Shown here: positions 1,035 through 38,809 of the stretch, in pieces
How positions within the stretch are numbered: the stretch's first letter is position 1
Layout of the letters: every line of letters starts with the position of its first letter
Virus record (IMG/VR): IMGVR_UViG_3300037067_026753
Strand: one strand, 5' to 3'
From: a virus
Length of the DNA: 64,000 nucleotides
Translations under genes and position numbers: made by a program
The notes under the pieces: model-generated
What the model saw: the letters and a program-made list of their open reading frames with translations, nothing else
Told to the model about the DNA's origin: nothing
Databases searched by the model: none

Positions 1035-2777
1035 TTAATTTTTCTTTTTATTAATATAGGACATAGGCATATAAAAATCTTCACCAGTTTCTGTAATGAA
1101 TTGTCCGTATTCGCCACTATCGATTGTAGTCACAAAAGATACTTTCTCTCCCTTTGTGATAACAGAATTCCCTTGCTCATCGAACCAATATGTACCTTCA
1201 TCATGATCAACTGGAATGTCTTGAGAAACAACAAATATATTCGATTTTTTTACCTGTTCTAAGTCATTAATATTTTTCATTATAGTCTTTTTGTCATCGA
1301 GTCTAATGATGAACATGGGACCACGTTGTGAAACAACTTCTCCAATTTTTCCCTTTTCTTTACCAGTTTTTATTTTAACCCTATCACCAGATTTGATTTT
1401 TGTTTTAGCAGTTTTATAGAGAGATTCTTCTGAAGCAAAAAAACAACGGGGACATTCTATAATATCTTGTTGCCCTGCATCAACGGAAGTGGCCTTTATT
1501 TTCCAAAGATCTGTTTTAAAACCACATTTTAAACATTCAAATGTATCAACTCTTGAAACTGTTTTATTTGCAGGAGCAATTTCTAGAACAACAATAGGAA
1601 CTTGTTTGCGTAATTCAAAACCTGGCTTTAATCCCGCATCATCTTTTATGTCATGAGGATTATCATAAGGAATATCAGAATAATCATGGGTGGAAATTGA
1701 GAAATCTTTATTACCTGATTCATTTTCAATTGGATGAGTTGCTTCTTTTTTACCAAAAACTTTTTCAAGGATTCTATCGACAAAACCTGTTTTTTGTTTT
1801 GGTAAGACTTGACAAAGATTTTCTAACTCTTCACTTGAAAGAGTTTCTTTTGCTGTGAGTATTTGATTTGCTGTTTTGATTTCTATAGAACCGTCTTGTT
1901 TGATTGCAATATTTGCAACATCAGTATCCTTTGATGCAGCTTTTAAAAGAACTCCATCCTCTTTTACCATTGTTTCAATTTTCGAATTGAGGATATTTGC
2001 AAGCAGATAATTACTAACTTCAGAAGTGGAAAGAATTTTTCTAAAAACAGCGCCAGCAAAAGCAGGATTAGCTACAAGAGAAACATCAAAAAATGTGTTA
2101 TTTATACATATTTCTGCAGCTCTTCTTGATGTCCCATCAGGTAGTCTATAAGTAGAACCTTTATTACCACGTCTAAGATGTTCACAATATGATGTAGGAT
2201 CATTTGCAATGTTTCCACAAATACTGCATCTTGTTTGAGCTGTAGTACAACCCATAGAAACTGCATTTATAATACCATTTTCAATATTTGCTACAAGATC
2301 TTTGTGTCTTCTATCTACAGAAAAAAGGACATCAATAAGAAGTGTGTCACCCATGTCTCTTGCAATGACATCAATGCATTTTCCTTTTGCATTTTCTAAT
2401 CTTTGATCATGTTCTACAAAGGTTGTTGCTCTTTTAAAGGACTTGTAATCTTTTAAAAGATCATTACATGTCCAAGCATCATGATTGTCATTGATAAATT
2501 TTTCAGTAGCAGTAGTAATCCAGTAGCCATTGTCTTCAGTTTTTACCCCAGCCATAATCGTAGTATGAATGTAGATAAATTTCGTTGGATCAATTGTGCT
2601 TACAACCTGAAAATCAGCCTCTTTATCGACAGCTTCTTTGTCAACAGCTTCTTTTTTGGGTTCTTCAATAGTGTTTTTGATGTTTGCTTGTTTCTTTAGA
2701 GCACTCCAACTACTAATGTCACCACCCAAAATTTCGATTTTTGCTGTTTTGAGCATGCCAACTTTATTGAAAGACAT
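1035..2777 (-). CDS. prohead maturation protease-like protein (HK97 S78/U35-type C-terminal strand motif FFDVSLVANPAFAGA, His then AVSMG Ser) with inserted CxxC zinc ribbon, fused to C-terminal KOW-like/scaffold-like region
   Basis: motif recognition in translated ORF; position downstream of terminase-portal genes. Confidence 0.5.
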   Translation of the reverse strand: MSFNKVGMLKTAKIEILGGDISSWSALKKQANIKNTIEEPKKEAVDKEAVDKEADFQVVSTIDPTKFIYIHTTIMAGVKTEDNGYWITTATEKFINDNHDAWTCNDLLKDYKSFKRATTFVEHDQRLENAKGKCIDVIARDMGDTLLIDVLFSVDRRHKDLVANIENGIINAVSMGCTTAQTRCSICGNIANDPTSYCEHLRRGNKGSTYRLPDGTSRRAAEICINNTFFDVSLVANPAFAGAVFRKILSTSEVSNYLLANILNSKIETMVKEDGVLLKAASKDTDVANIAIKQDGSIEIKTANQILTAKETLSSEELENLCQVLPKQKTGFVDRILEKVFGKKEATHPIENESGNKDFSISTHDYSDIPYDNPHDIKDDAGLKPGFELRKQVPIVVLEIAPANKTVSRVDTFECLKCGFKTDLWKIKATSVDAGQQDIIECPRCFFASEESLYKTAKTKIKSGDRVKIKTGKEKGKIGEVVSQRGPMFIIRLDDKKTIMKNINDLEQVKKSNIFVVSQDIPVDHDEGTYWFDEQGNSVITKGEKVSFVTTIDSGEYGQFITETGEDFYMPMSYINKKKN

Positions 2778-4445: not shown

Positions 4446-6697
4446 ACTTTAAATTCTTCTCGAATTGTTTCTCTAATTGCACTTTTGATTTTTTCAATCT
4501 CGTGTGTTTCATTTAATTTTGATTCAAGTAAAAAAGTAAGTTTTGAAATATTATCAGCATATAAATCTTTTGCAGCATTTACTTTTTCTGTAATTGGCAA
4601 TTCATCTTTAATTCTAGATGCAAAAACTTGAGGTAAATATTTTTTAAGCGTATGAATTCTTATTTTAGTTGTCGAAGATCCATTTAAAGCAAGAATTTCA
4701 TTTTCTAAGTTCAAAACAGCACGTCTAGCATTCTGACTCAATTTTAAATCTTTTATCATTGAATCAACCCAAGCCTTCTTTGAGTTTTCTTCAACAATAA
4801 TAGCAGCACCAAGTTGCTCAGCTTTATCCGTGTCCACAAATGGAATATCAGGGATTTCAACTTTATTTTCAGATTCAGCAAATAATTTTACTTTTTTTTG
4901 ATCTGTTCTTTCGGGTTTGAGTCTTTTTTCTAAAGGAACTTCCAGTTCTTCTATTTCATCGTCTCTTTTCTTATCTTTTTTATTTTCTTGTCTATCATAT
5001 CTACGTTGTTCTCTTGTTTCTGCTGTTTTTGTAATTTTTTCATTTTGTGTCGCAAACATTTCTGTTGATGCTTCAGGTTCATATTTTAAACCAAGTTCTT
5101 GTGCCCTTAATTCCGCAATTGCAGGTGCAAGAGTTCTTCCAGCTTCGGTAGCAGCACCATTCATCATGGTGAAATAATTAATATCGAGTGGAGTACCTTC
5201 AAATCTCTTGAGCCTTTCTTTAACAGTTTCAGCGTCAAGCCCAAAACACTCGAGCCAAGTTTGCATATCGATTTGACCCTGAGTAACCATTTGAGCAAGC
5301 ATCTGTTTATGGGCTGTATCATCAACAAAATTCAATCTGTTCCATTTGATACGAGGATACAACCATTTGATTTTCTTTTCTTTCTTAGAAGTACCTTCTT
5401 CATATTCTGCCCAATCATTTCTTTTGGCCATAGGAAGAAATAATGATTGAATCACATAACTTTCAATTCTTTCTCTATAAATTGAATATTTTTGATTCAT
5501 TACTTCTAATACGGTTTGTCCATTAGCATAAGAACCTTCACCTAACAAGAAACTTTTATTTATCATTAACCCTATCAACAGTTCCTCGTTTATCCAATTC
5601 CATTCTGACTCTAATTGCATCAACCCTTGACTTGTTCCAACAAGGTCCCAATGCAATTCATAGTTAGTAATGATGGCGTAATCAGGATCTGCAAAAGCAC
5701 TGTCGACCTGTTCTCTAATTATATTCAGATCAGCCATACCTGTAGAATCTGCCCAAATCAAATGTTTCGGCGTAAGATGTCGAGAAGCTACAGCATCCTG
5801 TGATTGTCTTAATCTGTCTTTATAAATAAGAGTTTTGAAATTTCTCTCTACAATACCAGTACCCACAAGGTCATAATCAGCCATTTTGTAGGTGACATGA
5901 GCCACATGGCTACCATGATTTGGATCTGTATTTAAAGGTATTTTCTTTCCTGTTTGTACAAGTTCAATAACATCTTCAGGTATTGCTTTAAAAAGAACAC
6001 CTGTTTTTGGGTTATCAGGTCCATTGTTAATAATTTTCTTCATTTGCTCATTTGGAATTAAATCGACTCTCATTATATCAGTAAATTGAAGTTTTTCAAG
6101 TTCTATATAATCAGGATCTAACAGAGTCAGTTTTGTCCAACGGTTTTTCTGTTCGCTCCATCGAGCAAAAGGAAAGACGTTACCAAGTTTGTAGTATTCA
6201 ACACCCATTTGAAGGAGTTTATTGAACAAATCAATACCTTCAGTGGAACACATTTCTTCGTATTCTTCTTGGATCTTCCTTGTTTTTATCTTATCTTTGC
6301 TTGGGGGTAATGTCAATCTTATACTTGACAAAGGAAGTTCAGCATGAGAATCTATAGCAGTACTAACTAAAGGATCATATTTGTAAAAATAACGACACCA
6401 TGCATTTATTTCTCTATAATCACGAGGAAGTAAGATAGAACTTGGCTCAAATTCTGGGTGGTAAAAGCTTGGCATAGAATTCTTAACATTTGCTCCACCC
6501 CCACAAGTATTAGCAGTCTTAGACATTGATCTAGACATTCGATCTACTACACGTAACAAACGTTTGTTATATTTTCTGGGCTTTCCTTGATAAAACTCAG
6601 AATCTATAATAGTTGTGTCATTCCCGAATTTGATCGTAGCGCCATTCTTTTTCATGCCACTTGAATCAAGTTCAGAGCGTTTTTTTCTTTGAATCAT
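4442..6697 (-). CDS. putative portal protein (751 aa)
   Basis: size and position immediately downstream of large terminase in head module; no diagnostic motif. Confidence 0.4.
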   Translation of the reverse strand: MIQRKKRSELDSSGMKKNGATIKFGNDTTIIDSEFYQGKPRKYNKRLLRVVDRMSRSMSKTANTCGGGANVKNSMPSFYHPEFEPSSILLPRDYREINAWCRYFYKYDPLVSTAIDSHAELPLSSIRLTLPPSKDKIKTRKIQEEYEEMCSTEGIDLFNKLLQMGVEYYKLGNVFPFARWSEQKNRWTKLTLLDPDYIELEKLQFTDIMRVDLIPNEQMKKIINNGPDNPKTGVLFKAIPEDVIELVQTGKKIPLNTDPNHGSHVAHVTYKMADYDLVGTGIVERNFKTLIYKDRLRQSQDAVASRHLTPKHLIWADSTGMADLNIIREQVDSAFADPDYAIITNYELHWDLVGTSQGLMQLESEWNWINEELLIGLMINKSFLLGEGSYANGQTVLEVMNQKYSIYRERIESYVIQSLFLPMAKRNDWAEYEEGTSKKEKKIKWLYPRIKWNRLNFVDDTAHKQMLAQMVTQGQIDMQTWLECFGLDAETVKERLKRFEGTPLDINYFTMMNGAATEAGRTLAPAIAELRAQELGLKYEPEASTEMFATQNEKITKTAETREQRRYDRQENKKDKKRDDEIEELEVPLEKRLKPERTDQKKVKLFAESENKVEIPDIPFVDTDKAEQLGAAIIVEENSKKAWVDSMIKDLKLSQNARRAVLNLENEILALNGSSTTKIRIHTLKKYLPQVFASRIKDELPITEKVNAAKDLYADNISKLTFLLESKLNETHEIEKIKSAIRETIREEFKV

Positions 6698-10813: not shown

Positions 10814-10990
10814 TTAAACATATACACGTATTTGATTTCGTTGTTTGTAACGTTTTCTGAGGCACTCAACACAAATAATCTCTCCATACATTACTTCTAT
10901 TACTTCTCTTGTTTTCTTATCTACGATTTCAACTTTGATACGTGCATAATTGTCTTTCTCTAGATTGCAATTCGAGCAATGCATTTTCAT
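10814..10990 (-). CDS. small zinc-ribbon protein, 58 aa (MKMHCSNCN...CVEC), not in ORF track (<60 aa)
   Basis: own translation; two CxxC pairs. Confidence 0.35.
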   Translation of the reverse strand: MKMHCSNCNLEKDNYARIKVEIVDKKTREVIEVMYGEIICVECLRKRYKQRNQIRVYV

Positions 10991-10999
10991 CTCCGTTAA

Positions 11000-11278
11000 T
11001 TATTTTATATCGGCAAGTTTTGTTGCTCCCTCACCTGATCTCTCCCTTTCAATCATTTTTGATTTCATCTTGTCGTTCTTTTTTTTCATTTGGTCTTTAA
11101 TTCTAAAGCCCTGACTTGGCCAATCATTTCCTTTGAGAACAAAATTCTTGTTTAAAGAAAAAAGCCTTTCACAATCACCAGAACAAATCTCGCATGACAC
11201 TTTTGGAGTAGCTGTAATACCGTGCATTTGTTCTTGAACATTTCCACATTCCTTACACTGATACTCATATGTGGGCAT
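11000..11278 (-). CDS. FmdB-family zinc-ribbon protein paralog (MPTYEYQCKECGNV...CEICSG)
   Basis: same signature as 10529..10786. Confidence 0.6.
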   Translation of the reverse strand: MPTYEYQCKECGNVQEQMHGITATPKVSCEICSGDCERLFSLNKNFVLKGNDWPSQGFRIKDQMKKKNDKMKSKMIERERSGEGATKLADIK

Positions 11279-13101: not shown

Positions 13102-14814
13102 TTAATTTTTATGTTTATGAATCTGAACTACGCGCTCTTGCTGTAAAGCTTTTTCTTTTGAAGGATGCCTTCCTAAAAGTCTATCTTGATCCTTTGTGTA
13201 TAAACACCATCGTTGTTCTGATTTGGGTCTATTATCTTGATCTTTTTTAGGGCATTTTTTGATTATTGCTATCTTGATAAGTTCATGTTTACTAAGAATC
13301 TTTTTCTCTTCATTTGTCAAAAGGTTACTCAAGTATTTTATTGGATCTTTAAAACCATAACGCTCAATATATTTGAAAATAATATTGAAAGCTTCCCAAT
13401 TTTTACTAAATTTGCAACCTAATAATTCAAATTCATTTGTTTTGAATCTAATTAAACGAAATTCTTTAATTTCTTCTTTCAAAGTTTTCAAATCTTGAAA
13501 ATCTCGTGTTAATTTTGCTTTTATATCAGTCGTGTCCTTATTTGCTTTTTCTTGATAGACTAAGTCATTCACATGAACTTTTGTTCTAAAAATAAAGGGT
13601 AGAACAAATCTAACAATAGACAAAGCTTGCTGTCGTTCTTTTGCAAATTCTTCATCAGGTACAAAAGTAGTATCGACAAATTTTGGAGAACTCAACCACG
13701 AATCCTTAAGAATATCATAAACAGAATCAGATTCTAAACGTCTATTTTTCCCTATAACAAAGAATTTCACGGGATGGTCACCAACCAACTTCTTGTCATT
13801 TAACCTATAGACATATTGGCGGATAAATTGCCTTATCTCGAGATCATTCGAGCAATGTCTAACCGATTGTAGATTGTCTTGTCTAAACTTGTCAAAATCT
13901 ATAGAAACATTTATATCGACATCAGTTTCCGGAACATATTGATTAGTAACCATTGATCCTGTCATTGAAATATCAGTTACCCAATTTTTATAATTGTTAA
14001 ATTTAGAAAGAACACTAGAGAGCCTATCAAGAATTATCTTTCTAATTTCAGATTTTAATCTTATTGGTTCGACTTTCAAATCCCAAATCATAGGACAAAA
14101 AGTTTCTTGAGGATAATCAATTATCGAAGCATGCTTGGGCAAACGTCTTTCAAAAAAAATTTCAAGTTCTTTGGGTAAGAGTTTTTTCTTTTTTAAAACT
14201 TCTGCATTCTGCTCCAACATATCTTTCCCGCCTGGGACATAATCTCTTCTTTCGATTAAAGGTTGCATTATCTGAGCAATAATTCTCTCAGTATTTGCTT
14301 TTTTGTATTCTGATGTATCTTTAACTTTTATCCAAAGAAATTTTTTAGCACTTGTTTTTATAAGAGCATAATAACCATCAACTTTTTTACCATTAAATTT
14401 TACCACGTATTTCTTATCATAATCGACATCTACAAGTTCAAAAGTTCCTTTGTCATAAATATCGACTGTTCCTGCACCATAATGCCCTTCTGGTATAGTG
14501 CCCTCAAAATCACGATAAGCTATATCATGATCTTCAGTTTCTGATGCAAGCAAAGGTTTATCGCTTGGGAGTTTATGCTTTGGAATTGCCCAACTTCTAA
14601 GCACTGTACCTGATTTGTCTGGGAATTTTGTTTCTGGTTCCGTTGTGCTATCATTATCCCAAACACGCTTTTTGTAATATGAAGTAAGGGCATCTTTCAA
14701 TGAATCAACAGGGAATTCAAGTCGTAGATCCCAGTGTTCATTAGTAGCGACATGATGTTGTATTACGAATTTTCCTTTATATCCAATTTGAAGTTTTTCT
14801 TTATCGTAACTCAT
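13102..14814 (-). CDS. LigD-type 3'-phosphoesterase (PE) domain (FVIQHHVATNEHWDLRLE, GHYGAGTVDIYDKGTFEL) fused to a Pol-beta-like nucleotidyltransferase-like region (TGSMVTNQYVPETDVDINV)
   Basis: strong match to LigD PE His/Asp motifs; GS...DxD NTase motif. Confidence 0.65.
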   Translation of the reverse strand: MSYDKEKLQIGYKGKFVIQHHVATNEHWDLRLEFPVDSLKDALTSYYKKRVWDNDSTTEPETKFPDKSGTVLRSWAIPKHKLPSDKPLLASETEDHDIAYRDFEGTIPEGHYGAGTVDIYDKGTFELVDVDYDKKYVVKFNGKKVDGYYALIKTSAKKFLWIKVKDTSEYKKANTERIIAQIMQPLIERRDYVPGGKDMLEQNAEVLKKKKLLPKELEIFFERRLPKHASIIDYPQETFCPMIWDLKVEPIRLKSEIRKIILDRLSSVLSKFNNYKNWVTDISMTGSMVTNQYVPETDVDINVSIDFDKFRQDNLQSVRHCSNDLEIRQFIRQYVYRLNDKKLVGDHPVKFFVIGKNRRLESDSVYDILKDSWLSSPKFVDTTFVPDEEFAKERQQALSIVRFVLPFIFRTKVHVNDLVYQEKANKDTTDIKAKLTRDFQDLKTLKEEIKEFRLIRFKTNEFELLGCKFSKNWEAFNIIFKYIERYGFKDPIKYLSNLLTNEEKKILSKHELIKIAIIKKCPKKDQDNRPKSEQRWCLYTKDQDRLLGRHPSKEKALQQERVVQIHKHKN

Positions 14815-35345: not shown

Positions 35346-35364
35346 TAACGTTAATAATGAAAAA

Positions 35365-35438
35365 TACCCCGTGCAGGACTCAAACCTGCGACCCTCTGCT
35401 TAGAAGGCAGATGCTCTATTCAACTGAGCTAACGGGGC
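35365..35438 (-). tRNA. tRNA-Arg (anticodon TCT)
   Basis: manual cloverleaf: GCCCCGT acceptor, loop CTTCTAA, T-loop TTTGAGT. Confidence 0.75.
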
Positions 35439-35477
35439 AAAGTTTCATAAATTATATATCATACACATAATAAAAAG

Positions 35478-35550
35478 TAAATTAAAAAGCAGCAGACCGG
35501 GCTTGAACCGGCGACCTCTACCTTGGCAAGGTAATATTCTACCAACTGAA
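35478..35550 (-). tRNA. tRNA-Gly (anticodon GCC)
   Basis: manual cloverleaf, loop TTGCCAA. Confidence 0.75.
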
Positions 35551-35559
35551 CTACTGCTG

Positions 35560-35633
35560 CATATAATGGTACCCTCGGCAAGACTTTAACTTGCGACTTT
35601 TCGGTTCGTAGCCGAATGCTCTATACGACTGAG
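35560..35633 (-). tRNA. tRNA-Arg (anticodon ACG), T-loop TTAAAGT atypical
   Basis: manual cloverleaf, loop CTACGAA. Confidence 0.65.
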
Positions 35634-36484
35634 CTACGAGGGCATAACTTTCTTTTAAAACAAGATTCTTTATAAAATTCTGGCATATATTTTTTCATCC
35701 AAGATGCTACTTTTTGTTGTCTAATATTTAAAATTTTTGATGCCTGATCTACCCAACCAAATTTTAAAAAATCAATTTTGCTTATTTTAATAGCATTTAT
35801 TTTTTCTTGAATTCTTTTTTCTTTGATTTGCAATCTTTTTTGTTTTTCTTCTAGAATTTTATCTTTAATAGTTTTAATGTCATTAATGTTATAATATCTG
35901 TCTTGTCGATCGTCAATGTTTTTTATAAAAGTTAACAATTCTTGTTTTTCTTTATTAGAATTTTTACATACGTTCACCCAACAAACTCTATAAATCTTCC
36001 AACCAAGAGATCTTAAATAAGCGTCTCTTTTTGCATCATGCTCGATATTTTCTTTTGAACGATAATGTTGTTGACCGTCAATTTCTATATCTAATTTCAA
36101 GTCAATAATTGCAAAATCAAGAAAATATTTCCCGACATTGAGTTTTTCTTTTATTAGATATCTCTTGTTTAAACTCTCTAATTCGAAAAAATTAACAAAA
36201 TATTTTTCTGGATAACTTCTTCTATTTGGGTCAGAATTTTTAAAACTCCAACCTTGATGTTCACCTTTTTTACATATCTCGATTTGAGCACGACTTATTT
36301 TCTTTTTATGTTCATTAGAAAGTTTTATTTTCCTTTTTTTACAAGATTTAATGACATATTTAATAGATGTAATTTTGTAACCAAATTCTTTAATTTTAGG
36401 AATTGGGACACCATCTTCATATAATTTTTTGATCTGTTGAACAATAAATTCTGAAATTTGACATCTAGCCTCATGAATTTTCAT
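35621..36484 (-). CDS. homing-endonuclease-like protein: C2H2/C2HC zinc finger region plus DUF559/Vsr-like PD-(D/E)xK domain (FLDFAIIDLKLDIEIDGQQH...RD..L...GW). 3' end overlaps tRNA-Arg(ACG). ORF-track N-terminus (to 36613) overlaps tRNA-Gly(TCC)
   Basis: domain motifs; insertion between tRNA genes. Confidence 0.5.
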   Translation of the reverse strand: MKIHEARCQISEFIVQQIKKLYEDGVPIPKIKEFGYKITSIKYVIKSCKKRKIKLSNEHKKKISRAQIEICKKGEHQGWSFKNSDPNRRSYPEKYFVNFFELESLNKRYLIKEKLNVGKYFLDFAIIDLKLDIEIDGQQHYRSKENIEHDAKRDAYLRSLGWKIYRVCWVNVCKNSNKEKQELLTFIKNIDDRQDRYYNINDIKTIKDKILEEKQKRLQIKEKRIQEKINAIKISKIDFLKFGWVDQASKILNIRQQKVASWMKKYMPEFYKESCFKRKLCPRSSVV

Positions 36485-36531
36485 ACCTCGAAACGACTTA
36501 CAACTTCTCCCGCATTTTTCGCATTTAAAAA

Positions 36532-36603
36532 AGTGGACGAAGGGACTTGAACCCTCAACAATCAGATTGGAAATCTGAGACTCTACCATTGAGCTACGTC
36601 CAC
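36532..36603 (-). tRNA. tRNA-Gly (anticodon TCC)
   Basis: manual cloverleaf, perfect 7-bp acceptor, loop TTTCCAA. Confidence 0.75.
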
Positions 36604-36612
36604 AAAAATTCA

Positions 36613-36685
36613 TAGTCCGGGGCGGAGTCGAACCGCTGTCCTGAGATTGAGAATCTCAAATCCTAAACCACTAGACGACCGGACC
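36613..36685 (-). tRNA. tRNA-Glu (anticodon CTC)
   Basis: manual cloverleaf, loop TTCTCAA. Confidence 0.6.
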
Positions 36686-36691
36686 AAAAAA

Positions 36692-36768
36692 TGGCTGGCG
36701 GGAAGGGACTTGAACCCCCAACCTTCGGGTTAACGGCCCGACGCTACCGCCTGTTGAGCTACCCGCCA
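36692..36768 (-). tRNA. tRNA-Asn-like (anticodon GTT) with encoded CCA, apparent C at position 33
   Basis: manual fold; anticodon loop CCGTTAA. Confidence 0.5.
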
Positions 36769-36860
36769 ATAAAATTAAATGCTCTACCTATCTCTGACTC
36801 TTTCCTTTTCAGACAGCCCTCAGGTTTAAAATCGTGTAGAGCAATTTCAAAGATCAAAAT

Positions 36861-36932
36861 CGGGACATAGGAGAATTGAACTCCTGTCTCCGGGTTGACA
36901 GCCCGGTGGCCTAACCACTAGACGAATGCCCC
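36861..36932 (-). tRNA. tRNA-Asp (anticodon GTC)
   Basis: manual cloverleaf, loop CTGTCAA. Confidence 0.75.
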
Positions 36933-36941
36933 ATAAAATTT

Positions 36942-37015
36942 TGGACCGTGTCGGGATTGAACCGACCAAAAAGCTGCTTGCAGGGCAGCTCCGCCCCCAT
37001 TGACTGTTACGGCCC
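36942..37015 (-). tRNA. tRNA-Ala-like (anticodon TGC), apparent C33 and weak D-stem. Possibly degenerate
   Basis: manual fold; loop CCTGCAA. Confidence 0.4.
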
Positions 37016-37048
37016 TTAAAAAACTTTGAGCTATATGAGAGTCTTCTA

Positions 37049-37094
37049 CTACCATTCCTGCCGGCTATATAGCTCAATAGCCTTGGGAAATGGT
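37049..37094. other. imperfect ~20-bp hairpin (TACCATTCC...GGCTATATAGCTCAATAGCC...GGAAATGGTA)
   Basis: inverted repeat seen directly; lies between CDS 37128..37451 and tRNA block. Confidence 0.4.
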
Positions 37095-37127
37095 ACCTGA
37101 TTACTCAAGTTCTAAAAGTCTCTCTTT

Positions 37128-37451
37128 TTAAATATCTGTCAAAGAACTATCTCTGTTCTTTATTTCTTGCATTGAGAGACCATAAAGTCTCCTTTGATTA
37201 CCACACATAGCACAAGAACAAAGTTTTGTCGTATTTCTTCTTCTTGCTGCTGCTAAATGAATAGCCTTCTCTCTTTCATTGGGATCTTTTATCCATCTGT
37301 AAGAATCCCAATAACCTGCTCCACGCCTTTTGCCCTTGGTATCTCCAATGACAAAACGTTCAAGCCTGTTTCCAGGGTGTGACATAATGACTCCTTTCCG
37401 CACTCTCTGGTGGAGTGCTATAGACTGGATGCCATTATGTCCTCCTTTCAA
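37128..37451 (-). CDS. small basic Cys-containing protein (107 aa)
   Basis: ORF abutting tRNA-Met. Confidence 0.4.
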   Translation of the reverse strand: MKGGHNGIQSIALHQRVRKGVIMSHPGNRLERFVIGDTKGKRRGAGYWDSYRWIKDPNEREKAIHLAAARRRNTTKLCSCAMCGNQRRLYGLSMQEIKNRDSSLTDI

Positions 37452-37456
37452 TTTTA

Positions 37457-37530
37457 TGGGCCATGAGGGACTTGAACCCCCGGCCTTCTCGTTATGAGCG
37501 AGCTACTCTTACCAACTGAGTTAATGACCC
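37457..37530 (-). tRNA. tRNA-Met (anticodon CAT), elongator-type (G1-C72). tRNA-Ile2/lysidine type not excluded
   Basis: manual cloverleaf, loop CTCATAA. Confidence 0.7.
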
Positions 37531-37541
37531 GTATATTTCAA

Positions 37542-37615
37542 TAGGGGTGAGAGGGATTGAACCTCCGACCTTCTGCTTATCAGACAAACGCTCTTACCAA
37601 CTGAGCTACACCCCT
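37542..37615 (-). tRNA. tRNA-Ile (anticodon GAT)
   Basis: manual cloverleaf, loop CTGATAA. Confidence 0.75.
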
Positions 37616-37628
37616 GTAAATTTCAAAG

Positions 37629-37700
37629 TAGCCCCAAGGAGAATTGAACTCCTGCTATCAGGTTGAAAACCTGGTGTCCTTACCACTAGACCATGGGGCC
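37629..37700 (-). tRNA. tRNA-Glu (anticodon TTC)
   Basis: manual cloverleaf, loop TTTTCAA. Confidence 0.7.
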
Positions 37701-37705
37701 AAAAA

Positions 37706-37781
37706 TGGAGCCAGCACCCGGGCTCAAACCGGGAGTCTTTCGATTACAAGTCGAATGCTTCATCAATTAAGCTATACTGGC
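37706..37781 (-). tRNA. tRNA-Thr (anticodon TGT), CCA encoded
   Basis: manual cloverleaf, loop CTTGTAA. Confidence 0.7.
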
Positions 37782-38573
37782 GAAATTTGTTTCTAACCAT
37801 AATTTATCGTATCTAATCAAAAATTTATAACCTCCATAAAAAGCACGTCTAAATTCTTGCTTTGACTTAAAAGTTGACGCTTTTTGTTTTGCAAGTTCAA
37901 GCGTCCATTTTATCAGCGTTTTTCCTTCTAATTCTACTTGTTTTTTTCTTTCAAGTTGCTTTTTTGTCAATTGTCTGTTTTTTCTTGTACTTCTCCCTAA
38001 ATTATTTCTATAAGTACTTGTTAACGAATGATGATTGGGACATAACAATTGCAAATTTTCTTCATTATTATTTTCGCCATTACCATCTTTATGATGCATT
38101 TCTATTGGGATTTTTTGAGTAAATATATTTCTTTCAGACCATCCGCATATCATGCATTTTTCACCGAATTTTTCAATCAAATATTTTTTTAAAACTTTTG
38201 TGTTTCTTTGCTTTCCTTCAGGAATTAATTTAAAATCTTTTTTCTTTTTTTGTTTTTTATAAAACTCAGAATAACAAGAACTAGAGCAAAATTTATTGTT
38301 TGAAGTTAATGTCTTGCAATTTAAGCATTCTTTTGTCCTGTCAATCTTTTTTCTTTTTGGAAACTTACTTCCATTATAAATTGCTGCACAAGTACGATTA
38401 CAGAATTTTCCGTTTCTTTTTTCGTAACTTAAAGGTTCATTACATTGTTCGCAAAAATTAGGTTCTTTTAGATAATTATTGACTTTTGTTATATGTTTTT
38501 CAAACTGAGCCACCCTTGAATTCTTATAACCTTTCTTTCCAGCTGTCGACGCTGTTTCAGAATTCCAAATCAT
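37767..38573 (-). CDS. HNH homing endonuclease-like protein with multiple zinc fingers (HHKDGNGENNNEENLQLLCPNHH)
   Basis: HNH motif; adjacent to tRNA cluster. Confidence 0.6.
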   Translation of the reverse strand: MIWNSETASTAGKKGYKNSRVAQFEKHITKVNNYLKEPNFCEQCNEPLSYEKRNGKFCNRTCAAIYNGSKFPKRKKIDRTKECLNCKTLTSNNKFCSSSCYSEFYKKQKKKKDFKLIPEGKQRNTKVLKKYLIEKFGEKCMICGWSERNIFTQKIPIEMHHKDGNGENNNEENLQLLCPNHHSLTSTYRNNLGRSTRKNRQLTKKQLERKKQVELEGKTLIKWTLELAKQKASTFKSKQEFRRAFYGGYKFLIRYDKLWLETNFASIA

Positions 38574-38809
38574 ATTTTTCTCTAAATCAAACGGACCCTG
38601 AATTTCTTCAAGGTCCGCATCCTAAATTTCGTTTTTATATTAGGATGCGGACATTACCCTCCTGTTTCGTCATTACCGTTAATGGCAATGCGATTTTCGC
38701 GGGTTCTGTTTGCTATCCTAATAGTTTTCATAATTGTTTCCTTGAAATAAATATACCACTATTATAATCAAGTGTACAGGTATTTTTAAAAATAAATTAT
38801 AAATATTTT

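Follow-up and report, generated by a model that had tools for sequence, protein, structure and literature searches.

A bacteriophage tRNA operon probably colonised by two unrelated free-standing homing-endonuclease genes

How did two nuclease genes come to lie in a run of phage transfer RNA (tRNA) genes, with their ends reaching into the tRNAs themselves, and are the members of that run with an unusual anticodon loop decayed or functional? Both questions are raised by a 64,000-nucleotide stretch of viral DNA, the IMG/VR record IMGVR_UViG_3300037067_026753 (the whole stretch is called the window below), in which twelve tRNA genes and two nuclease genes lie together on the minus strand. We favour the explanation, at a probability of roughly three in four, that a phage tRNA operon has been colonised by two unrelated free-standing homing-endonuclease genes, one of a Vsr-like family and the other of the HNH type. 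A sequence-only reading of the region, made by hand folding and inspection of its open reading frames (ORFs), had proposed an invasion of this kind; the family membership of the two genes, their motifs, the variability of their sites and the decay of some copies support such a reading.

The tRNA operon and its two nuclease genes

With default thresholds, ARAGORN places 11 tRNA genes on the minus strand within 35364-37781, and the Rfam tRNA model RF00005 agrees, with scores of 50-70 bits (gathering score, 29 bits) and E-values of 2.6e-13 to 7.8e-8. The twelfth, tRNA-Ala(TGC), is found at relaxed thresholds (ARAGORN -ps). The strand and all anticodons listed in the sequence-only reading are thereby borne out, and the boundaries and anticodons of 11 of the 12 are the same at default settings. 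That reading had also noted G1-U72 in several members; ARAGORN cloverleaves and Rfam boundaries identify four such tRNAs. The features of the operon are the following:

35364-35439, minus strand: tRNA-Arg(TCT), G1-U72 (ARAGORN; Rfam, 66.7 bits)
35488-35560, minus strand: tRNA-Gly(GCC) (ARAGORN; Rfam, 65.2 bits)
35567-35643, minus strand: tRNA-Arg(ACG), G1-U72, CCA encoded (ARAGORN; Rfam, 64.7 bits)
35621-36541, minus strand: free-standing homing-endonuclease-type gene, zinc finger plus Vsr-like/DUF559 nuclease of the EDxHD type (Pfam, homologues, AlphaFold2, Foldseek)
36532-36603, minus strand: tRNA-Gly(TCC) (ARAGORN; Rfam, 69.6 bits)
36612-36686, minus strand: tRNA-Glu(CTC), G1-U72 (ARAGORN; Rfam, 50.4 bits)
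36692-36768, minus strand: tRNA-Asn(GTT), C32-C33, discriminator G73, CCA encoded (ARAGORN structure; Rfam, 54.3 bits)
36860-36933, minus strand: tRNA-Asp(GTC) (ARAGORN; Rfam, 62.1 bits)
36942-37015, minus strand: atypical tRNA-Ala(TGC) (ARAGORN -ps; covariation with the related loci L014 and L085)
37457-37530, minus strand: tRNA with anticodon CAT (ARAGORN; Rfam, 64.4 bits)
37542-37615, minus strand: tRNA-Ile(GAT) (ARAGORN; Rfam, 70.3 bits)
37628-37700, minus strand: tRNA-Glu(TTC), G1-U72 (ARAGORN; Rfam, 66.3 bits)
37706-37781, minus strand: tRNA-Thr(TGT), CCA encoded (ARAGORN; Rfam, 62.5 bits)
37767-38573, minus strand: free-standing HNH endonuclease gene (phrog_1271, 5.5e-24)
38585-38700, minus strand: operon leader with two hairpins (88-96% identical by blastn in the related loci L014, L085, L015, L003 and L016)

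The Vsr-like gene lies between tRNA-Arg(ACG) and tRNA-Gly(TCC), and its frame stays open upstream of 36541, through tRNA-Gly(TCC), to an ATG at 36613 (ORF 35621-36613). The encoded protein consists of an N-terminal C2HC zinc finger, a nuclease core with the motifs YFLDF...EIDGQQH...D, a coiled linker and a C-terminal helical module. In Pfam, the ORF matches PF18741 (8.7e-14) and DUF559 (PF04480; 6e-12), and several of its 88 metagenomic homologues are named very-short-patch-repair endonuclease. Residues E112, Y139, D142, F143, E153, D155, G156 and D169 are invariant in 51-53 homologues and H159 is present in at least 90%; the window protein itself has H159, and along its 306 codons it retains every invariant residue, catalytic or structural. 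The conserved pattern of the family, E-x-D-G-x2-H...D with an upstream acidic residue, is the one described for EDxHD Vsr-like homing endonucleases, including the free-standing phage enzyme Hef (PMC3239194).

Structure prediction points in the same direction. In the AlphaFold2 model built on the family alignment (predicted local distance difference test score, 91), Foldseek matches the core to the catalytic domain of I-Bth0305I (3r3p; template-modelling (TM) score, 0.75-0.78), to DUF559 (3hrl; TM 0.81) and also to Vsr (1vsr), whereas the N-terminus resembles C2H2 zinc fingers. By sequence profile, the protein is nearer to DUF559 (3hrl, 1.6e-10) than to I-Bth0305I (0.085). The window ORF is predicted to adopt a Vsr-type nuclease fold, and Pfam, alignment and fold agree with the original assignment of a zinc-finger plus DUF559/Vsr-like endonuclease at this position. 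The tRNA overlap claimed for both of its ends holds as well: the TAG stop (35621-35623) falls in the D-loop of tRNA-Arg(ACG), the first 23 nucleotides of which double as the 3' end of the ORF, and the 5' part of the frame runs through tRNA-Gly(TCC), so that a start at ATG 36613 would put this whole tRNA under the ORF. The possibility that the nuclease is intron-encoded found no support, the gene sitting between tRNAs and inside none.

The second nuclease ORF displays an HNH motif in full, CMICGW...EMHHKDGNGENNNEENLQLLCPNHH. It comprises the beta-beta-alpha-metal elements (a histidine as general base, asparagine residues and a metal-binding histidine) together with the flanking CxxC and CxxH. 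The Pfam HNH_3 match is weak (E=0.0028, below the Pfam cut-off), and tblastn finds 33-39% identity to annotated HNH/homing endonucleases of jumbo phages. The sequence-only reading had allowed for nuclease ORFs lacking catalytic residues; these residues are present in both. The last five HNH codons lie within tRNA-Thr, with the TAA stop in the D-arm of that tRNA, and the gene is located between the conserved operon leader, which contains a terminator-like hairpin (38618-38591), and tRNA-Thr. Of the initial description, the family assignment stands, on phrog_1271 and the motif, and the statement that the gene follows Thr(TGT) does not, since it precedes tRNA-Thr in the direction of transcription. 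The gene is an insertion of ~800 bp confined to the window lineage: blastn shows the junction of leader and first tRNA without it in five relatives, and in L014, L085, L015, L003 and L016 the leader stands directly 5' of the first tRNA.

As a side observation, an unannotated HNH homologue (39% identity, E=2e-18) is encoded by the Enterococcus phage iF6 of the Herelleviridae (L084, MT909815.1 41103-41579), between tRNA-Phe and tRNA-Thr and on the strand opposite to the tRNAs.

Evidence for mobility of the nuclease genes, and rival explanations

A DNA search of 50,697 GenBank phages with the region returned tRNA-length matches only and no close relative; relatives were recovered instead via protein searches and exact-protein look-ups. 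Six syntenic ones were found through either an NMNAT-MazG fusion protein or an 85-amino-acid (85-aa) protein encoded in the tRNA array: L003, with an NMNAT-MazG 63% identical to that of the window, and L014, L085, L015, L016 and L027, with 85-aa proteins that are 75%, 71%, 66%, 58% and 51% identical, respectively.

The comparison with related phages that the sequence-only reading had proposed as a check shows endonuclease genes that are present, absent or decayed at varying inter-tRNA positions. The order of the tRNAs is largely conserved in the relatives, and the positions of the Vsr-like genes are variable. Three copies occur in L003, none of them at the window's site; L015 has one, after Arg(TCT), and L085 has one between Asn and Glu(CTC). 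At this last place L014 carries an apparently frameshifted copy, together with a C-terminal remnant between Glu(TTC) and Met. A second copy in L085 is frameshifted and truncated and occupies the window's exact site, starting 9 nucleotides past tRNA-Gly(TCC) and adjoining an intact tRNA-Arg(CCG), a gene that the window lacks. Except for this decayed copy, the site of the window's Vsr-like gene is shared with none of the six relatives; L015 and L027 have no nuclease gene there, and L027 has none in the corresponding part of the array. Six or more inter-tRNA sites are used by the family among the window, L003, L014, L015 and L085. A profile search of all fetched loci yielded 15 ORF fragments that represent 13 Vsr-like copies in nine loci, and every one of the 13 is located within a tRNA array and on the same strand as its tRNAs, at sites that differ. 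The copies of L014, L088 and L090 likewise end inside the downstream tRNA. This variable presence, absence and decay matches the prediction of an invasion by homing-endonuclease genes.

Distant homologues lie upstream of tRNA-Arg(ACG) in L088, Pro(GGG) in L090, Leu(TAG) in L094 and Arg(TCT) in L087. A preference for tRNA-Arg(ACG), as seen in the window and L088, was considered and rejected, because homologues are also found upstream of Pro, Leu, Glu and Arg(TCT/CCG).

Further oddities were seen in the same arrays. At the position of the window's Vsr-like gene, L014 (7456-7700, plus strand) has a tRNA-Arg(CCG) whose halves are ~190 nucleotides apart, split after the anticodon; an ORF of 47 codons lies in the insert, in which Rfam finds no group I intron. 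In L085 (3758-4540, plus strand), a nuclease-like ORF of a third kind encodes 260 aa with an N-terminal zinc ribbon and a C-terminal ...DFVIK...VECK. It follows tRNA-Glu(TTC), a site taken by a Vsr-like gene in L003 and by a remnant in L014; as these occupants differ, different families seem to reuse one insertion spot. Finally, a conserved tRNA-like element takes the position of the window's tRNA-Ile(GAT) in L003 (5290-5460), L014 (5750-5845) and L085 (~4500-4590). It features an acceptor stem CTTCTCG/CGAGAAG, a normal T-arm, a CTGATAA loop and a long variable region, with no recognisable D-arm, and three different nuclease ORFs run into it, ending in ...VSPHSDTV.

The tRNAs that flank the nuclease genes differ from the remaining ones in their similarity to counterparts in the relatives. 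Identities (%) of window tRNAs to those of L085, L014, L015 and L027 are given below; a missing value means that the tRNA is absent or was not compared.

Thr (adjoins the HNH gene): L085 62, L015 62
Glu(TTC): L085 92, L014 82, L015 86
Glu(CTC): L085 92, L014 92, L027 78
Gly(TCC) (adjoins the Vsr-like gene): L085 61, L014 56, L015 55, L027 100
Gly(GCC): L085 92, L014 63, L015 63, L027 64
Arg(TCT): L085 91, L014 76, L015 64, L027 77

Between the window and its closer relatives, several tRNAs share 82-92% identity; similarity is lowest for the two that adjoin nuclease genes, Gly(TCC) and Thr. In Gly(TCC), identity to the alleles of the closer relatives is 55-61%, as against 100% to that of the distant L027, and this tRNA looks like a replaced flanking marker. 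The pattern at Gly(TCC) and Thr is consistent with homing accompanied by co-conversion of flanking DNA. It has a parallel in the report that nuclease genes mark the borders of exchange between phages (PMC10448857).

From these observations, we infer DNA cleavage at target sites and homing. The Vsr-like nuclease gene would have been inserted immediately 3' of tRNA-Gly(TCC), and the HNH gene downstream of the operon leader, ahead of tRNA-Thr. When a related, insertion-free phage infects the same cell, each enzyme would cut the empty allele near its own insertion point, and repair by copying from the nuclease-bearing genome would transfer the nuclease gene together with the neighbouring tRNA. Both nuclease ORFs end inside the downstream tRNA, and after cleavage by RNase P and 3' processing the Vsr-like mRNA would be left without start and stop; full-length protein would therefore come from the unprocessed precursor only. 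Such a dependence would hold expression low; alternatively, the Vsr-like gene may be in early decay.

Several points weigh against colonisation by active homing endonucleases. Where ~90% of homologues have their initiator methionine (consensus MxxCxxC), the window has TTT (F-F-K-C-E-K-C), and its Vsr-like gene is therefore possibly inactive or weakly expressed. An empty site between flanks exactly like those of the window is seen in no relative, so that the insertion boundaries are drawn from relatives that are 51-75% identical in the 85-aa protein. Ordinary recombination could also replace tRNAs beside nucleases. The tRNA set does not include Lys(UUU) although AAA is the top codon, and tRNA supply thus matches codon usage in part only. 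Lastly, the top Foldseek matches of the Vsr-like model are RAP-domain proteins of mitochondrial ribosomes, and because these are associated with RNA, an RNA substrate keeps a small formal chance.

The TTT codon is also the starting point for the view that the window's Vsr-like ORF is an inactive relic, that is, an intact-looking but untranslated frame that has lost its start and from which tRNA processing strips both start and stop. In keeping with this, in-frame ATGs are confined to tRNA-Gly(TCC), in its D-loop, and to the 3' end of tRNA-Glu(CTC), a T-arm hairpin followed by a T run just upstream of the gene scores as terminator-like, and the orthologous copy of L085 is already frameshifted. 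We nevertheless regard this view as rather unlikely, given that the invariant residues have all been retained along the frame and that gene callers start a 322-aa product at the ATG in the D-loop of tRNA-Gly. Moreover, the HNH gene and other members of the Vsr-like family also run into tRNAs; an overlap with tRNA sequence is therefore normal for these nuclease genes. The missing start codon also speaks against another idea that we consider unlikely, namely that the nucleases are domesticated rather than purely selfish and, to the advantage of the phage, either exclude the tRNA regions of competitors or promote amplification and exchange of tRNA genes that counteract tRNA-directed host defences, like SegB of phages T4 and T6. 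SegB does promote amplification of tRNA-Tyr and anti-defence genes (PMC13096335), the tRNAs exchanged here are those beside the nucleases, and the abundance of RNA-repair genes in the window (RtcB, RNA ligase, LigD 3'-phosphoesterase and AAA_33 kinase) would be consistent with pressure from tRNA nucleases. However, no duplication of a tRNA segment is seen in the window, and the frameshifted, truncated and missing copies of close relatives fit a selfish cycle of gain and decay better.

Very improbable, in our judgement, is an action of the Vsr-like protein on RNA, as a factor that would process or bind tRNA precursors by analogy with RAP/FASTK-type Vsr-like domains. The best Foldseek E-values indeed belong to RAP-domain proteins of the Toxoplasma mitoribosome, the gene is embedded in a tRNA operon, and the Vsr-like protein FASTKD4 is reported to regulate mitochondrial mRNA (PMC11879112). 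Against these stand TM scores normalised to target length, which are 0.75-0.81 for I-Bth0305I and DUF559 versus 0.18-0.19 for the mitoribosome proteins, and the presence of a C2H2-like zinc finger together with helical modules such as homing endonucleases use for DNA binding. In addition, the position of the gene varies among relatives, in which it is dispensable and often decayed, and homologues from cultured phages carry the annotation homing endonuclease. Colonisation by two homing-endonuclease genes remains the explanation that we prefer.

Cytidine at position 33 of the Asn and Ala tRNAs

ARAGORN cloverleaves give the anticodon loops C-C-GTT-A-A for tRNA-Asn and C-C-TGC-A-A for the Ala-like gene, and they confirm the apparent C33 that the sequence-only reading had reported for both. 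Seven independent samples (JGI, ENA and Logan) yielded contigs that match the window at 100% identity along 1-8 kb each, and four of these contigs span the Asn and Ala genes, so that C33 is no assembly error; a sequencing or assembly error was likewise ruled out by the identity of the seven samples over parts of the region.

The Ala(TGC) gene is neither called by ARAGORN at default settings nor matched by Rfam, even at E<=10. It combines C32-C33 with G3:U70, A73, a D stem of 3 bp and a four-nucleotide spacer that separates this stem from the acceptor stem, and the odd D-arm is common to the window, L014 and L085. Across these three lineages, 7 of its 22 base pairs, in four helices, show compensatory changes. 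In tRNA-Ala, the determinant for alanyl-tRNA synthetase is the G3:U70 wobble pair of the acceptor stem, and this pair is invariant in the window, L014 and L085. The loop reads CCUGCAA in the window and L014 and CUUGCAA in L085; a C32-C33 loop also occurs in otherwise canonical Ala(UGC) tRNAs of L031, L033, L035 and L061, and six of nine aligned Ala(TGC) tRNAs of the clade have the CCTGCAA loop. As judged from these comparisons, the gene encodes a conserved, structurally atypical tRNA-Ala, a tRNA-like RNA. A pseudogene is ruled out by the covariation and by the recurrence of the CCUGCAA loop in distant relatives. Of the two options that had been raised for the C33 genes, degenerate or specialised, the former thus falls for the Ala-like gene, and the latter may apply. 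In the Asn gene, G73, the anticodon GUU and the encoded CCA are all retained. C33 of this gene is limited to the window lineage, the orthologues in L014, L015, L003, L085 and L027 having U33. Because G73 and GUU are kept in Asn, and G3:U70 and A73 in Ala, the two C33 tRNAs are probably functional variants that preserve their synthetase identity elements.

How widespread is this state? C33 was found in 39 of 422 unique tRNAs (9%) of the window and related loci. It occurs in Val (6/21), Ala (8/40), Thr (7/41), Ser (5/36) and Leu (8/64), and does not occur in Gly (0/36), Arg (0/35), Glu (0/21) or Ile (0/16), an unevenness with a chi-square p of 0.003, uncorrected for shared ancestry. In the controls, five tRNA clusters of unrelated phages, C33 is present in 3 of 83 tRNAs (3.6%). 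The excess in the clade over these controls is not significant (Fisher p=0.125), and a peculiarity of the clade is not supported. Thus, C33 is a minor but recurrent state of phage tRNAs generally and does not indicate decay.

Whether this state has a function is a matter of two opposing explanations. We give slightly less than even odds to neutral drift under relaxed selection on redundant phage tRNAs, in which case C33 of Asn and Ala would have no functional meaning. The occurrence of C33 in the control phages at a rate not significantly below that of the clade agrees with drift, as does the restriction of Asn C33 to the window lineage. For gamma-toxin, the one anticodon nuclease considered, a U33-to-C change left cleavage of an anticodon stem-loop substrate unaffected (PMC2275089). 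The uneven spread over isotypes argues in the opposite direction, within the limit on its p value given above, and so does the CCUGCAA loop, which is retained in distant Ala(UGC) tRNAs while the stems co-vary. C33 is also biochemically consequential: in vitro, it blocks the formation of N6-threonylcarbamoyladenosine at position 37 (t6A37) by E. coli TsaBCDE (PMC8887486), which is relevant to tRNA-Asn as a reader of ANN codons. On the selective side, evasion of anticodon nucleases by phage tRNAs has been proposed in a paper whose main text does not mention position 33 (PMC10264068), and our literature search found no paper that ties C33 to phage tRNAs. It is doubtful, if conceivable, that C33 and the remodelled tRNA-Ala have been selected, through alteration of the U-turn residue, to escape a host enzyme that reads the loop, be it an infection-triggered anticodon nuclease or the t6A37 machinery, with homing endonucleases shuttling resistant alleles among co-infecting phages and tRNA processing gating expression of the endonucleases, whose ORFs would take their start and stop from the adjoining tRNAs.

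Genome setting, further elements and known systems

We read the genome that hosts the operon as that of a large uncultured bacteriophage, on the grounds of the gene content of the window, its PHROG matches, IMG/VR relatives of 119-254 kb and a strong Shine-Dalgarno sequence before the 85-aa gene. The G+C content of the window is 32%. Its genes include ribonucleotide reductase, a helicase, an RRM protein and the NMNAT-MazG fusion, and several of its ORFs match PHROG families. One of the contigs with 100% identity is 214,816 bp long, and contigs of up to 424 kb carry an identical 85-aa protein. Clustered RNA-repair and NAD-related genes were noted at 59786-62179 (plus), 39367-40374 (plus), 13102-14814 (minus), 50437-50949 (plus) and 50906-52318 (plus); this group includes an RtcB interrupted by an intein, an RNA ligase fused to an HNH-like domain, a protein with a LigD 3'-phosphoesterase domain, an AAA_33 kinase and a eukaryote-like PARP that has WGR, regulatory and catalytic domains.

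Per 1000 codons, the genome uses AAA 84.6 times (the commonest codon), GAA 62, ACA 28, AGA 27, GCA 25, AUA 23 and GGA 16 times. The twelve tRNAs favour the A/U-ending codons that the genome uses most, namely AGA, GAA, ACA, GCA, GGA and possibly AUA, and the set also holds minor isoacceptors. The mention of AUA depends on the tRNA with anticodon CAT, which is either an elongator tRNA-Met or a lysidine-containing tRNA-Ile2; it is not initiator-like, because it has G1-C72. At its position, L015 has Ile(TAT), and alignment shows no sequence orthology between the two.

The sequence-only inventory of the cluster, sound as to tRNAs and nuclease ORFs, had overlooked a conserved gene for the 85-aa protein:

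37128-37385, minus strand: gene for a basic protein of 85 aa (phrog_4499; HPxNRxER...NTTKLCSCxMCGNxR), between tRNA-Met(CAT) and the Ala-like tRNA
37386-37447, minus strand: leader of this gene (alignment of six loci)

The gene lies within tRNA arrays in 31 of 33 related loci. All 57 homologues of its product are unnamed, and searches of Pfam, NCBIfam and PDB folds gave no match. Its leader comprises, in this order, a Shine-Dalgarno sequence, a mini-ORF of five codons (ATG 37435 to TAG 37418) with the product MASSL or MASKQ, a hairpin (37418-37400) and a second Shine-Dalgarno sequence. In the alignment of six loci the hairpin shows compensatory changes, and the leader could be a translational control element.

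Apart from the operon, four tandem cassettes occupy positions 45655-46300 of the plus strand. They are bounded by a conserved 5' box, TTTAAC-N5-RWGCTTACAT, and a conserved 3' box, AAAAAnTAGCAT..AACTCGAGC, and their outer stems of 10-11 bp vary in sequence among cassettes while complementarity is kept. In cassette 4 (~46177-46263) the 3' half of a tRNA stands ahead of the 5' half, and the halves, joined in silico, give a tRNA-Ser(GCT) at ARAGORN default thresholds. Joined likewise, two cassettes of the related 195-kb contig L138 (7100-7460, minus strand) give Leu(TAG) and Lys(TTT); un-permuting cassette 2 of the window's array (at 45.8 kb) yielded no tRNA. Two of the window's cassettes hold tRNAs of normal topology with unusual anticodon loops:

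45689-45764 and 46019-46094, plus strand: tRNA-Asn(ATT) and tRNA-Gln(TTG)

The former has A34 and the latter A33, in the loop T-A-TTG-G-A, and both encode CCA. Related cassettes exist in L003 (~1050-1200, minus strand) and L014 (~10980-11130, plus strand), where the counterparts of these two tRNAs have a similar body and quite different anticodon loops. The cassettes match no Rfam ribozyme family. Their arrangement resembles that of circularly permuted tRNA genes, and the phage itself has genes for RtcB and an RNA ligase; a literature search found no report of permuted tRNA genes in phages.

Homing endonucleases in phage tRNA clusters are an established theme, exemplified by SegB of phage T4, whose gene lies in a tRNA cluster and which causes this region to be inherited preferentially (PMC2330249); segB is associated with tRNAs across phages (PMC13096335). 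Here, as in T4, free-standing nuclease genes lie between phage tRNA genes, and the cutting of the tRNA region of related phages by SegB, with inheritance of the adjacent tRNAs, parallels the apparent replacement of Gly(TCC) and Thr. SegB has a GIY-YIG fold, unlike the Vsr-like/EDxHD and HNH proteins described above; hosts and phage lineages also differ. With I-Bth0305I and the EDxHD family (PMC3239194), the window's Vsr-like protein shares the nuclease fold, the E..D..H..D residues and the combination of a DNA-binding module with a nuclease domain. However, the gene for I-Bth0305I resides in a group I intron of recA, and the enzyme has its NUMOD and helix-turn-helix DNA-binding region before a C-terminal nuclease, whereas the window protein is free-standing in a tRNA array, with an N-terminal zinc finger and a central nuclease, and the sequence similarity of the two is marginal by profile comparison.

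T5-like phages likewise have tRNA arrays interspersed with small ORFs and nuclease genes, and in the T5-like Proteus phage Stubb, annotated ORFs have 3' ends that overlap the next tRNA. The tRNA regions of T5-like phages carry HNH endonucleases, and the annotation of Stubb names no HNH gene in that stretch. In contrast to this group, the HNH gene of the window belongs to a family found mainly in jumbo phages. Phage tRNAs that evade anticodon nucleases (van den Berg et al. 2023, PMC10264068) resemble those of the window in the departure of their anticodon loops from the canonical form, and RNA-repair enzymes are present here too; that work concerns specific VapC recognition sites in mycobacteriophage tRNAs, and our analysis identified no nuclease that tells C33 from U33.

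With this locus, the theme of homing endonucleases in tRNA clusters reaches a lineage of uncultured huge phages and a family of the zinc-finger/Vsr-like type, and its relatives together display, with unusual clarity, the whole life cycle of a nuclease gene, from insertion and the exchange of flanking tRNAs to frameshift, truncation and loss. It also illustrates that conserved atypical phage tRNAs can escape automated tRNA finders. In about one of eleven tRNAs of this clade, C33 replaces the "universal" U33, with a concentration in certain isotypes. If this bias reflects selection, it would provide a testable link between the anticodon-loop sequences of phages and the defences or modification enzymes of their hosts.

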